From: Octopus vulgaris
Taxonomy: Eukaryota
Length of the DNA: 64,000 bases
Direction: 5' to 3'
Assembly: GCA_951406725.2 (NCBI GenBank)
Contig: OX597832.1
Coordinates: forward strand, 70,804,001 to 70,868,000
In this document: piece after piece, positions 19,318 to 61,872 of the stretch
Position numbering within the stretch: position 1 is the stretch's first letter
Layout of the letters: each line of letters begins with the position of its first letter
Translations under genes and position numbers: made by a program
Notes under the pieces: generated by a model
Database searches by the model: none
The model's input: only the letters and a program-made list of their open reading frames with translations
What the model was told of the DNA's origin: nothing

Positions 19318-20858
19318 ACGTAGGGCTCACCACTTCACCCTACGTGGATACCCCCTCACCACTATCCACACCGCCCTTGCCAGAGCACGGTCCGTGGACC
19401 GTGTAACTGCTCTCTCTCCCCGAACCCGCCCTGTAGTCTCCCGCCTCCCTTTTCCCCTCACTTACCACCCCACGACCCTACCTCTCCAACGCACCATTCT
19501 TCGAGCTTTCCGTCATCTCCAGTCCGACCCGTCCACTTCACACCTCTTCCCTAACCGACCCCTCCCCTCTTTCAAACGAGCCCACAACTTTCGAGACCTT
19601 TTGGTCTATAGCTCCTTCCCTGACCCTACCTCCCAACCCGGCTCGTTCCCCTGCTCCCGCCCACGTTGCCGCACTTGCCCTTACCTCTCCAACACCACCC
19701 TCCTCACTAGCACCCATCATCGACCCTATCCCATCATCCACTCCTTCACCTGCACCTCCAGCAATATTATCTATTGCGTCTCTTGCTCTCTCTGCCATTC
19801 CTTGTACATCGGACAAACGGGACGCCGCTTGGCTGACCGGTTCGCGGAACACCTTCGTGACATCCACCTTGCGAACGACACACCGGTCTCACGCCATTTC
19901 CGCTCCACGGTCACTCCTTGCAACACCTATCTGTGTTCAGTTTGTCCCAACACAGAGGCCATCCGGATTCCCGTTTGCGCCGTGAACAGGAATTAATCTT
20001 CTCTCTTCGCTCTTATACGCCATTTGGTCTCAACTCTCCCCCCCTCCTCATCTAACCCTTCTCCCTCCCCTCCTCACCTACCTTTCCCCCCCGACCCCTA
20101 CTTCTTCAGTCCTTCATCCTTTCATCCCTACTCCCCTTCCCTTCTTCCCTCTTTCTCCCTCCTTCCCTCACTCCCCTTCTCTCTCCCCCTCTCCCTCTTT
20201 CCTCCTTCCTCCTCCCCTCCTCCTCCCCTCCCCCTCTACTCCTCTCTCCACACTACACCACACGACTTTACACATCACATCATATATGATGTGCCATTTA
20301 ATACATACACCAACTAATACATACTAATACGTACTAATACATACTAATACATACACCAACCCTATACATACACACGTCCAGACCTCTCATACGCACTTAT
20401 ACTCTCTCATACACACACCCTTATACATACTAATACGTACTAATACATACTAATACATACTAATACATACACCAGCCCTATACATACACACGTCCAGACC
20501 TCTCATACGCACTAATACTCTCTCATACACACACACACACCCTTATGTTGGAGCCGGTCATTCAACCCTATTATCAACCCTATTATCTCCCCTTATTTCG
20601 TTCTCGCGTCTCATGTTTGATCTTTGACCTCTGGCCGAAATCAGATCGCCATGTTGATTCGTTAGTTACTGCACTCATTTTTTTCTCTCCTTCTTTCTGT
20701 GTTTTTTTTTCTCTCTGTGTATCTTTCTGTTGAAGGGCGTAGGCTCGAAACGTTAAAGACTTGTTTTATTTATATTTCCTGAGCGCCATACTAATACAAT
20801 TGTTTGTTTGTTTTCCACCTGCCTTCGTCTTTTGTCTATTTTCATAAAGCTTCCCGTT
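19318..20858 (+). mobile_element. Penelope-like element 3' part (family A): Cys linker, GIY-YIG, C-rich 3' UTR, hammerhead-like motif, (TA)n
   Basis: ORF 19394-19996: PLTYHP, CSRPRCRTCPYL, FTCTSSNIIYCVSCSLCHSLYIGQTGRRLADRFAEHLRDI. Confidence 0.9.
20722..20759 (+). ncRNA. Minimal type-I hammerhead-like motif (core CUGUUGA plus extra A)
   Basis: TCTTT-CTGTTGA-A-GGGC gtag GCTC-GAAA-CG-TT-AAAGA. Confidence 0.5.
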
Positions 20859-20876
20859 ATATATATATATATATGT

Positions 20877-22350
20877 ATAAGGATGAAAAGGAACACACGA
20901 GTTGATATATATGAAAAAACAAGTCAAGATTGAAAATGGTAAAATAATTTTATAAAGAACATTTCAGTACCGGTTTCAGTCATTTTGAGACCTTTTCAAC
21001 TGTAACGATTAAATAATTAAATTTAGAAAAATTAAAAGAAACATTTTTTTTAAAGAATATTTGTATAGTGTTCAAATATAAGTGGCATTTTCCTTGTTTC
21101 TGCCTTTCTCTGTCTCTCTTGTTTACACTTGTGGGTTCGAGGTCATTGTGAAGTCTTGGTAGGGAAGAAGAAGAAGAAGAAGAAGAAGAAGAAGAAGAAG
21201 AAGAAGAAGAAGAAGAAGAAGAAGAAGAAGAAGAAGAAGAAGAAGAAGAAGAAGAAGGGGGGGAGTGCCTTGATTGTCGTATTTTGAGTGGTCAGTGGCG
21301 GCTAGCAGCTGCTGTTCAATTCATGAGAATATTTCTATTGAAAGGTTTGTTTATAGAATTTGCGTAGGTGTTATACTAAAAAGCATTAGTGATAAAGTTA
21401 GGAAGTAGAAGGAGGAGAAGAAGAGGAGGAGGAAAAAGACGAAGAAGAAGAAGAAGAAGAAGATGATGATGATGATGATGATGATGATGATGATGATGAT
21501 GATGATGACGATGATGATGAGGATAATGATGATGATGATGATGAGGATAATGATGATGATGATGAACAAGAAGAAGAAGAAGCAAAAGAAGAAGAAGAAG
21601 AAGAAGAAGAAGAAGAAGAAGAAGAAGAAGAAGAAGAAGAAGAAGAAAGAGAATGGAGAATATGAATGAGTGGAAGTAGTGAGGTGTTGTATGACTTAAA
21701 GTTGGCACGTTATGGGTTATAGCTGTGATTGAGGCTGATTTTTAATGGATTCTTAGGAATGTAATATTTGCGTGTGTATTTGTGTTATTCTAAAGCCGAG
21801 GTGGATATATCGTTTTGCGTAGATCCGTTCAGAAGAGGTCTGTATTTTGTAAGAAAGAGAGTTTCTTTACTTATTCGTTGGCTCGAGGTTGTATCGTCCC
21901 TGAATTGGTAGAGGGGGAAAATCCTGAAGCTTGGTGTTTTGTTGTTGGCGCAAATATCTATGTGTTGGCTGAATGCTATTTTTCTGTTTTGGGGAATTTT
22001 TATCTGGTATCTGTGCAGGGCCATTCTTTTACGCAAACTATTTTTTGTTTGGCCTATGTATTGCTCTTGACACCCAGAGTAGGTTAGTGTGTATATCAGG
22101 TTCTCCGAAGCACATGTGAAGTTGCTTTCCACCGTGAACCGTTGTCCCTGTTTGAAGGAGAACTCTGATCCCTCAATTAGATAATCGCATATCCCGCAAT
22201 TGGGTCTTCCACATCTTTTTTGCTGTCGGCTTCTGTGTTGATGAGCGTATTCGGGCTTGTGTTAGGAGATTTTCATAGATTTAGGCTGTCTCTTGCTTTT
22301 TATGATCGTGTGTGTTTGGAGGATTATCTTCATTCTGTGGTCTTTTTTTA
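20877..22350 (-). mobile_element. Penelope-like element 3' part (family B): GIY-YIG plus 3' UTR with hammerhead
   Basis: IIKSKRQPKS, CGRPNCGICDYL, FTCASENLIYTLTYSGCQEQYIGQTKNSLRKRMALHR; UTR interrupted by (GAA)n/(GAT)n. Confidence 0.85.
20960..21007 (-). ncRNA. Type-I hammerhead motif with U3-A8 core
   Basis: CGTTACAG-TTGAAAA-GGTC tcaaaat GACT-GAAA-CCGG-TA-CTGAAATG. Confidence 0.7.
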
Positions 22351-59258: not shown

Positions 59259-61520
59259 GATATATATATATATATATATATATATATATATATATATATA
59301 TATATATATATATATATGTGTGTATATATAAATATATATGTGTGTATGTGTATGTGTGTGTGTGTGTATATATATATATATGTGTGTGTATGTGTATATT
59401 TGTGTATATATATATATATATATGTATATGTATGTGTATATGTATGTATATATATATATATAAGTGTACGCGAGTATGTCGATGTATATGTAGGTATGTA
59501 GAGTTATGTGTATGTGCATGTATGTGTGTGTATATACAGATTGTAGATGGGTATATATGTGTGTGTATATATACAGATTGTAGACGGGTATATATGTGTG
59601 TGTATATATACATATGTATATGTATATATATGTGTGTGTATATATATATATATATATATATATATATATGTATATGTGGGTATGTAGAGTTATACGTATG
59701 TGCATGTGTATATGTATGTATATATATATGTATGTGTATGTGTATGTATGTATATATATGTGTGTGTGTGTATGTGGGTATATGTATGTATATATGTATA
59801 TATGTGTGTATGTGTAGGTGTGGGTATATATATATGTGTGTGTATATATATATATATATATGTATATATATATATATGTATATATGTGTATATATGTGTA
59901 TATATATATATATATATATATATATATGTGAATATGTGTGTGTATGTGTACATATGTGTATGTGTGTGTATGTATATATATATATATATATATATATATA
60001 TATATATATATATATATATATATATATGTGTGTGTGTGTGTAAGTGTGTGAATATATGTATATGTAAGTGTGTGTGTGTGTATGAGTATGTATGTATGTT
60101 TGCACACATGTATATATATATATATATATATATATATATATATGTATATATGTGTGTATGTATATGTATGTGTGTGTGTGTATATATGTATGTGTGTGTG
60201 TATGTGTGTATATGTATATGTATGTGTATGTATGTATGTGTATATATATATATATGTGTATATGTGTATATATATATATATATGTGTATGTGTATGTGTG
60301 TGTATGTATATGTATGTATATATGTGTGTATGTGTGTATATATATATATATATAAATATATATATATATATATGTATATATGCGTGTATGTATATGTATG
60401 TATGTATATATGTGTGTGTATGTGTATGTGTATATGCACATATACGTGTACGCTCGTGTGTTTATGTATATGTAGGTACGTAGAGTTATGTATGTGTGTA
60501 TGTATATGTACATATGTGTAAGTATGTATATATATATATATATATATATATATGTGTGTGTAAGTTTATATGTATGTATCCGTCTGTATAATAGGTAACT
60601 GCACGTATATATACTTAATATTTATTATTTATTTTTTGAGTATGCATGTATGAATAACTGCACGTATATATATTTTATTATTTATTTTTTGAGTATGCAT
60701 GTAAGTATGAACATAAGGAGGCGCGTGTGTGTGTGTATGTGTAAGCATAGATATATGTATACTTTTACGCATGTGTGTACTTATGTGTATATATGGATGC
60801 GCGTGTGTGTGTGTGTGTATGGGTACGCATGTATATGTTTATGTGCGTGTATGTGTATATGTGTATGTATGTGTGTGTGTATATATGTATATGTATGTAT
60901 ATGTATGTATGTGTATATGTATATATATATATATATATATATATGTATGTATATGTATATGTGTATGTGTATGTATTTGTATGTGTATGCATGCGCGTAT
61001 ATGTATGTATATGTATACTGTGGGTGTGTGTATGTGTATATATATATGTATGTACGGGTGTATGTATGTATGTATATATGCGTATATATATATATATATA
61101 TATGTGTATATATATATATATATATGTATGTATTTGTATGTAGGTGTATATGTATGTGTGTATATATATTTATTGGTGTATATGTATAAACTAGTCTTCT
61201 AAGAGTGTAGACATGAATCTGTAGGTACGCATACGTATGTGTATATACGTGAATGTATGTAGATGTGTGTATGTATGAATATAACGCGTGCGTGCGTGTA
61301 TGTGTATGAGTGTACGAATGAGTGAGTGTGCGTGCGTGAGTGTATATATACATGTGTGTGTGTATATGTACGTGCATGTATGTGTGTATATATATATATA
61401 TATATATGTAGATGTGTGTATGTATATGTATGTGTATATATATATGTGTGTGTGTGTATGTGCATGTGTGTATGTATATGTGTGTGTGTGTGTGTGTATA
61501 TATGTATACATATGTGTATA
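59259..61520. repeat. Degenerate (TA)/(TG)/(TATG) microsatellite field of about 2.2 kb
   Basis: Directly visible; source of the long YIYI/HTHT ORFs. Confidence 0.9.
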
Positions 61521-61872
61521 GGTATAAGTGAGAATCTCCTTATTTACCTAAAACTCTATTCTTCTATATATTTTTTTATTCTTTTATTTATTCTTTTATC
61601 TAATTTACCACTGACTCCTTGACCACTCCCCTAAGTATGATATTTTTGCGCTATGCCTACCCCCCAAAAAGTCCCCCACCACCACCCCCTTTAAACCTGC
61701 CTAAATGTATAAATGCCAATACAATTCTTGTTAACTAGCTTCCTGAAGATTTCTCTTGAATGAAACAGTTCTAGTCCTGTAGAAGCTCCTTCTATATAAT
61801 AAATTAATTTTACTCTGCTATGTATTGAGTACCTTATTTACTGTGGTTAACCCCGAATCAACCCGGGACCTA
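61520..61872 (+). mobile_element. Solo PLE-like 3' tail
   Basis: Hammerhead followed by AATAAA, gagtaccttattt and (TA)n; same layout as the other PLE tails. Confidence 0.55.
61737..61787 (+). ncRNA. Type-I hammerhead ribozyme
   Basis: AGCTTC-CTGAAGA-TTTC tctt GAAT-GAAA-CAG ttctagtc CTG-TA-GAAGCT; 6-bp stem I, GUA cleavage triplet. Confidence 0.8.

Follow-up and report, generated by a model that had tools for sequence, protein, structure and literature searches.

The closest described relatives of the motifs reported here are the minimal hammerhead ribozymes found in Penelope-like elements (PLEs); these are type I, have a stem III that is palindromic or minimal, are located in the elements' end repeats, form opposite-strand pairs, carry in some cases an extra base between positions 9 and 10.1, occur as many families per genome and include a variant with a U3-A8 core pair that has ~1,300 matches in Schistosoma (Cervera and De la Pena 2014, PMC4209133). 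They cut weakly as dimers (PMC4209133), dimer cleavage being described also for short-stem-III PLE hammerhead variants in a review (PMC6765202), and their function has been called unclear (PMC8557442). Here, we analyzed 64,000 nucleotides of the Octopus vulgaris genome (the window; assembly GCA_951406725.2, contig OX597832.1, forward strand, G000:C19:70804001-70868000), located in a 2.8-Gb genome on a contig of 71.8 Mb, <1 Mb from its end. The window has a G+C content of 35.5%, is rich in microsatellites, and among its long open reading frames (ORFs) only retroelement fragments could be assigned. It contains motifs that, with their genomic relatives, share the features of structure, location, and family make-up listed above and that are, as predicted from their letters, minimal type-I hammerheads, several of them within PLE end repeats. 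We consider it likely that, in active source elements, these motifs adopt the catalytic fold and would cut slowly, either in dimeric form or aided by a protein, and that selection keeps positions 3 and 8 paired.

The initial annotation of this DNA had listed about 12 hammerhead-like motifs of about eight families with exact type-I topology. By direct reading of the letters, all 13 sites that it named hold a hammerhead motif; ten of the positions given are the exact low end of the motif (20722, 23894, 25224, 27803, 29277, 33473, 33728, 36164, 37472, and 61737), the remaining three are ≤5 nt off, and grouping by sequence yields 13 sites in nine families. The order stem I, 7-nt core, stem II, GAAA, stem III, UH, stem I is present at 13/13 sites, but "exact" does not apply to several imperfect ones. 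Naming each site by the window position of its core nucleotide 3 (Table 1), the 10.1-11.1 pair is U.U at 23900, 37510, 42425, and 61743, G-C at 20727, 22705, 29284, and, together with a bulged U before G12, at 25280/27809, G.U at 20999 and 36247, and not clear-cut at 33526/33733, where stem II is weak; a weak stem I is seen at 22705 and also at 42425, where it is broken. Positions 3 and 8 are Watson-Crick paired in 13/13 cores, with swaps in only three families (four sites). Eight of the 13 sites have a CUGANGA or the published U3-A8 core while the other five comprise two A6U, two U4C, and one G3-C8 core. The 15.1-16.1 segment is palindromic, and thus dimer-capable, at 12/13 sites (at 23900 with one change), whereas 61743 forms a closed hairpin, and self-duplex energies of the stem III boxes range from -0.2 to -11.1 kcal/mol. 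Minimum-free-energy folding of monomers often returns other folds, as expected of dimer-type motifs, and was not taken as evidence.

Using a stem-aware descriptor, loosened after the sites had been seen, we obtained 13 window matches with a score of at least 12. By comparison, 40 block dinucleotide shuffles gave a mean of 1.45 (maximum 6), and the reversed window gave none. The descriptor recovers 11 of the 13 named sites and misses 22705 and 42425; its two additional matches (24582, minus strand; 61964, plus strand) have unpaired positions 3 and 8 and look like chance. No Rfam family matched at gathering score anywhere in the window, and the homologue search returned no informative names. Because the 150 listed of 532 matches in an Rfam E-value scan of the window were all microsatellite-driven microRNA matches, we regard that scan as uninformative. 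The search for direct repeats was likewise swamped by microsatellites, and only inverted arms were used from the repeat search.

All four Watson-Crick 3-8 pairs occur as family states in the genome (C3-G8, U3-A8, G3-C8, and A3-U8), the last one outside the window. The initial annotation had held that every change at position 3 is matched at position 8; this is correct for families and incorrect for copies. Outside the window, a pattern describing motifs with stem III ACCGGU, in which position 3 was not displayed, gave 15,985 genome matches compared with 1,751 for the reversed control. In 40 loci hand-picked from the first 100 listed sites, favoring an unusual position 8, 35 of 41 motifs were Watson-Crick paired at 3-8 by hand count (A3 with 14/16 U8, U3 with 18/20 A8, C3 with 2/3 G8, and G3 with 1/2 C8). 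A second pattern, requiring a pyrimidine at position 8, gave 2,004 matches (control, 977) and, hand-counted in the first 100, A3 in 82/86 motifs with U8, and G3 in 6/14 with C8 and 0/86 with U8. Because the motifs in both tests are copies of a few families, the corresponding Fisher values are too strong. Two loci with C3 and U8 (L165 and L166) lack the stems and were rejected as hammerheads. We conclude that family-level covariation of positions 3 and 8 is supported by these sequence comparisons.

In 38 equal-length motifs, 85% of cells pair, compared with 72% when shuffled (0 of 500) and 15–37% when slid, and two-sided changes occur at 6/6 pairs of stem I; because about half of these motifs came from a pattern fixing A3 and U8, the 3-8 count in this set is not an independent one. 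With a tight pattern for A3-U8, 601 genome matches were obtained; a GIY-YIG frame is matched by 13 of the first 30 loci, two of them overlapping, and mostly lies ~300 nt upstream. In a protein tree of 30 fragments (two of 32, which lack a downstream motif, were dropped), the 18 A3-U8 rows form one clade (99/98) nested among U3-A8 lineages. Thus, A3-U8 is a single derived clade within the U3-A8 elements. One row, L193, was considered as a second A3-U8 origin and rejected, its endonuclease belonging to a neighboring U3-A8 copy. Separately, we observed at L156 (G000:C1:7827850-7828500) that the arms of one inverted insertion differ by the double change between U3-A8 and A3-U8, with the motif otherwise the same.

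At the level of copies the picture is different. In the G3-C8 family, 97 of the first 100 of 7,016 pattern matches with G3 have C8, and there are 236 matches without G3; hand-counted in the first 100 of the latter, 83 keep C8, nine have U3.G8, and four regain a Watson-Crick pair. Because 83 of 100 non-G3 copies keep C8, copies decay mostly without compensation.

The proposed PLE origin is borne out for four of the nine window families, which are tied to reverse transcriptase (RT)/GIY-YIG frames. In the CUGUUGA, UUGAAAA, UUGACAA, CCGAAGA, and A3-U8 families, the motif lies in an end repeat 3' of such a frame and on the same strand. Specifically, the CUGUUGA motif follows a GIY-YIG-type frame both in L117 and in the window. 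The UUGAAAA motif (361 candidates, 40 of them scored) also follows such a frame, at a distance of 650-830 nt on its 3' side, in the window, L046, L053, L056, and L231, and in L232 a 736-aa RT frame is followed by the UUGACAA motif. The L232 frame matches Pfam RVT_1 (E 6e-8), and a single L231 frame matches RVT_1 (E 2e-9) followed by a C-terminal GIY-YIG domain (E 2e-5). An inverted element flanked by the two CCGAAGA motifs shares 98% identity with the 2,579-nt unit of a tandem array in L228. Thus, both a tandem period and inverted arms are seen among PLE end repeats. This linkage was seen neither for G3-C8, in 62 loci, nor, among the limited loci compared, for four other window families.

The L228 array (G000:C1:57208600-57214400) resembles PLEs of the Hydra clade, and one of its units has an open 717-aa frame with RWK and DKT motifs, a C-terminal endonuclease (EN) domain with a weak GIY-YIG match (E 0.014), and no RVT_1 match. 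Together with the period of <3 kb, these features make the element at 25187-27902 and in L228 fit the Hydra clade, by motifs only, the tree having been made without reference sequences; the tandem PLE appears to be a good candidate for an active element. The U3-A8 elements show DKG and a CX2-5CxxC linker, and the A3-U8 and A6U fragments show the linker. Introns are known in PLEs, and we observed that the A3-U8 end repeats of L199-L222 carry, ~25 nt 3' of the cut site, CAT|GTAAGT followed by a pyrimidine-rich tract, resembling an intron donor.

The G3-C8 motif belongs to a non-coding element of ~220 nt, whose start lies 20-25 nt ahead of the core and which targets TA repeats; its 5' part is inverted in 15/30 loci, and its tail is long in 18/30 and short in 12/30. 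In the window it lies within a Helitron-like element, 28586-30553, which is common, whole or in large part, to 30/30 top loci, and whose 5' TC and 3' hairpin with CTAG we take to be Helitron end features. This carrier appears young, with hundreds of near-identical copies (756 first-look candidates), and also holds captured fragments and an internal repeat (107 nt) whose copy number varies. The G3-C8 copies are 100% identical in 40/40 scored; because the Helitron-like element carries them as passengers, we rejected this identity as a sign of selection, and the window's copy is one that was amplified in this way. Contigs of four sequencing runs contain the element under three organism codes; in the core, GAAA, and stem III, where depth was lower, they show no variant that reaches a frequency of 5%. 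Starting ~60 nt 3' of the cut site, a 30-codon frame runs from an ATG to the long end of the element (L125:1328-1420, minus strand); it may be the N-terminus of a missing parent, and the end repeat of PAc, the hammerhead-bearing PLE of the green anole, likewise overlaps the start of a frame.

To estimate the genome-wide load, we sampled 60 evenly spaced 10-kb stretches (600 kb) with a core of NUGANNA set beforehand. The sample contains 27 matches with a score of at least 12, compared with 5.4 in eight and 4.4 in ten shuffles (maximum 8 in the latter), corresponding to ~100,000 motifs (60,000-160,000) when extrapolated to the genome. The 3-8 states are C-G in 15, U-A in four, G-C in two, and others in six, i.e., 21 Watson-Crick pairs compared with 2.1 expected. 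All five matches with C4 cores (0.8 expected) are paired at 3-8. The U6 class shows no enrichment under the strict descriptor (5 vs. 5.5), and its support is the sequence anchor of the family, by which the sample holds 11 copies. The suggestion that CUGANGA searches miss part of the repertoire is supported, because 6 of the 21 paired matches are swaps, with U6 and C4 forms not yet counted. The proposed large, uncatalogued repertoire is indeed large; it is not uncatalogued altogether, because PLE U3-A8 hammerheads and the massive occurrence of PLE hammerheads in animal genomes were in print in 2014 (PMC4209133).

Two core changes are fixed without any compensation. In the A6U family (CUGUUGA; 17,045 pattern matches), 96 of the first 100 matches have U6 and 96 have G8, while position 7 takes all four bases (43/23/22/12) with G8 retained. 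In the U4C family (CCGAAGA; 3,694 matches), 92 of the first 100 have C4, and the eight that keep U4 are mostly more diverged relatives. Two side observations concern the same positions. One family has CUGAUGA in some copies (L073, L098) and CCGACGA in another (L086), so that the canonical-looking cores could reflect CpG decay of C4 cores, or the reverse. In L075, a well-formed motif with 6-bp stems I and II and stem III ACGU has the core CUGGUGA (G6), a possible further position-6 variant.

Based on these data, our working model is as follows. The hammerheads would act in transcripts of tandem source elements, in which two copies would pair via their palindromic stem III; cutting would be slow and perhaps aided by the protein of the element, as in PAc, where a PLE hammerhead dependent on its protein is partly rescued by combining C3G with G8C (PMC11167929). 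We infer low activity because A6U, U4C, and U.U are tolerated. Selection would operate on master copies only, such that positions 3 and 8 stay paired while the pair may switch, position 7 is free, and changes that lower the rate are tolerated. Insertion would proceed mostly from uncut RNA and leave inert truncated copies; because nearly all inserted G3-C8 copies keep the entire ribozyme upstream of the cut site, cleavage seems not to be needed for insertion. The claim of selected, functional ribozymes can hold for source lineages only, most copies being probably inert.

Several observations weigh against this model. A6U and U4C are fixed in large families, U4C even in the tandem element that appears young and intact, and A6C and U4C lower activity in other hammerheads (PMC3088659). 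Hammerhead mutants had no effect on insertion in vitro (PMC11167929). Among 36 distinct G3-C8 loci in the first 100 of 216 overlapping matches, insertion starts have no clear peak at the cut site (by hand count, 5-7 lie at the predicted cut, six at +2/+3, and 13 at -16 to -21, a shared target T/A blurring the assignment), and no coding parent of the G3-C8 element was seen in 62 loci. Unpaired minorities exist (U3.G8 in 9/100 non-G3 copies and A3.A8 in 2/38 motifs), copies are not independent, and separate 3-8 switches may number only three to five. Finally, a class with a longer stem III and non-G8 cores gave 14,983 matches (control, 5,916), mostly off-register, with no 3-8 signal.

Some of these observations would be explained if the fold were retained as a structural handle for protein binding, RNA folding, or an intron or start-codon context, with many variant families no longer cutting. 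In favor of this explanation, 17,045 copies share a fixed A6U and a young tandem element has a fixed U4C, inserted copies keep the uncut motif, cleavage is dispensable for insertion in vitro and no RNA ends were found at the cut site (PMC11167929), and Naiad elements thrive without a hammerhead while the function in other PLEs is called unclear (PMC8557442). Against it, the G5, A9, GAAA, and UH nucleotides look retained, although our search patterns fixed them. Moreover, the 3-8 pair forms only in the active hammerhead fold. It is described as a feature of the active core (PMC3088659). We consider the structural explanation unlikely.

A less probable explanation, to which we give little weight, is that the paired states are founder effects, i.e., that a few lineages fixed complementary bases by chance and were then amplified. 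The small number of independent switches, the amplification of the window's G3-C8 subfamily within a Helitron, and the unpaired minorities fit this idea. By contrast, for three to four switches all to reach the Watson-Crick partner has a rough chance of 0.4-1.6% (an estimate, taking 1 in 4 for each), G3-C8 is found together with two distinct types of stem III, and changes in position 7, loop II, and stem I have left the pair of the A3-U8 clade intact. It is highly improbable that the many copies in the genome act on host transcripts as functional ribozymes in their own right: there are ~100,000 copies, many of them intact in sequence, but their mutations are uncompensated, and because most are single or inverted, they cannot dimerize in cis. 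We regard as negligible the probability that AT-rich repetitive DNA produced the motifs by chance, because, although the window descriptor was loosened afterwards and 42425 and 33526/33733 are weak, a chance origin of the whole set is refuted by the shuffled and reversed controls and by the steady position 3' of PLE frames; single weak sites may still be chance.

The features of the window are listed in Table 1. The families of 33526/33733, 36247, 42425, and 61743 were compared only against a limited set of fetched loci, among which the motif at 42425, probably decayed, has no relative. A further broken PLE-like RT/EN fragment lies at 11203-12197 (plus strand); no hammerhead was found within 1.5 kb downstream, a weak absence because the same scan also missed the known L117 motif. 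Two mutually related fragments, at 32245-32655 and 46971-47522 (plus strand), have no Pfam match and presumably resemble the C-terminus of proteins of CR1-type long interspersed nuclear elements.

Table 1 Hammerhead motifs and associated elements in the window (window positions; P3, core position 3)
Feature	Position	Strand	Remarks
5'-truncated PLE, GIY-YIG-type C-terminal frame 19319-19996 and 3' repeat	19317-20848	+	ORF; 89-91% to L117; 28% identity to L231 EN region
Minimal hammerhead, CUGUUGA (A6U), P3 20727, extra A before stem II, stem III ACGU	20722-20759	+	Predicted cut after 20754
5'-truncated PLE, GIY-YIG frame 21785-22261 and 3' repeat	20882-22363	-	79% to L231 EN region; Pfam GIY-YIG E 0.002, below cut-off
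Minimal hammerhead, UUGAAAA (U3-A8), P3 20999, stem III ACCGGU	20965-21004	-	Predicted cut after 20968
Second CUGUUGA hammerhead, weak stem I, P3 22705	22701-22736	+	
Hammerhead, UUGACAA (U3-A8), P3 23900, U.U at stem II base, one C>T in stem III	23894-23938	+	
Hydra-clade-like PLE, inverted 941-nt arms; RT-EN frames 25481-26962 (-), 26838-27608 (+)	25187-27902		98% to 717-aa frame of tandem copy L228
Hammerhead, CCGAAGA (U4C), P3 25280, bulged U before G12, stem III ACUCAGAGU	25224-25286	-	
Inverted twin of CCGAAGA hammerhead, P3 27809	27803-27865	+	
Non-autonomous Helitron-like element, ~2.0 kb, 5' TC, 3' hairpin and CTAG, in TA repeat	28586-30553	-	G3-C8 element as passenger
Short non-coding G3-C8 element; sense part 29266-29406 (+) after inverted 3' arm	29083-29406		
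Hammerhead, GUGAACA (G3-C8), P3 29284, extra G, 5-bp stem II, stem III AAUAUU	29277-29327	+	Predicted cut after 29320
CUGAAGA hammerhead-like motif, weak stem II, inverted arm, P3 33526	33473-33531	-	
Twin CUGAAGA motif, P3 33733	33728-33786	+	
Canonical CUGAUGA hammerhead, long stem II, stem III ACAAUUGU, P3 36247	36164-36252	-	At turn of inverted duplication; one 90% relative in L055
UUGACAA (U3-A8) hammerhead, P3 37510	37472-37516	-	
RT fragment of UUGACAA family	39463-39789	+	
CUGAAGA motif, U.U stem II base, broken stem I, stem III ACAGCUGU, P3 42425	42347-42430	-	
CUGAAGA hammerhead, closed 4-bp stem III hairpin (monomer-type), P3 61743	61737-61787	+	Relatives in L027 (CUGAUGA), L100

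Repeated natural swaps of a pair in the active core would provide the evolutionary evidence that has so far been missing on whether PLE hammerheads cut, and searches based on CUGANGA undercount hammerheads. We entertain only tentatively the stronger proposal that ~100,000 hammerheads with all four 3-8 pairs, undescribed A3-U8 and G3-C8 families, and >17,000 U6 copies are all still cutting, probably with the aid of a protein; in that case, a large share of natural hammerheads would be invisible to consensus searches. The octopus families also supply matched natural mutants, A3-U8 beside U3-A8, C4 beside U4, and U6 beside A6, together with one intact tandem element. Lunse, Weinberg and Breaker reportedly described ~150,000 short-stem-III hammerhead variants in 2017. 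While PLE hammerheads, U3-A8, and U4C are already in print, the A3-U8, G3-C8, and A6U families are, judged by their cores, probably new as natural families: our literature search, of partial coverage, found no published example, and the alignments of Lunse 2017, figures, and supplements may hold such cores.

Animal retrozymes are short head-to-tail repeats with canonical type I hammerheads. The octopus copies differ from them in being single or inverted, and the only head-to-tail arrays that we saw are full PLEs. According to the text of Fig. S3, the 56 representatives in PMC4209133 include C3-G8, two U3-A8, and one U3.G8 core but none of the A3-U8, G3-C8, U6, and C4 cores seen in octopus, and the largest per-genome counts stated in the text of that paper, ~4,000 and ~9,000, were obtained with a different descriptor than the ~100,000 extrapolated here. 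U3-A8, U10.1-U11.1, a two-pair stem II, U4C in a viroid, and a change at position 6 (A6C) are also among the natural variants of Perreault et al. 2011 (PMC3088659); core variants that are rare there are fixed in octopus in families of thousands, and A6U, A3-U8, and G3-C8 are not named in the section of that paper considered here. With regard to the elements, the one at 25187-27902 and in L228 shares RWK, DKT in place of DKG, a length of <3 kb, and a C-terminal EN with Hydra-clade PLEs (Craig et al. 2021, PMC8557442), while the U3-A8 elements share DKG and the CX2-5CxxC linker with Neptune PLEs (PMC8557442), a placement by motifs only. Finally, PAc from the Poseidon PLE of the green anole (Frangieh et al. 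2024, PMC11167929) has in common with the octopus elements a PLE hammerhead, AT-rich targets, and an optional 3' tail; the C3G/G8C combination that was engineered in PAc, where it is partly active, is in octopus the natural state of a family.

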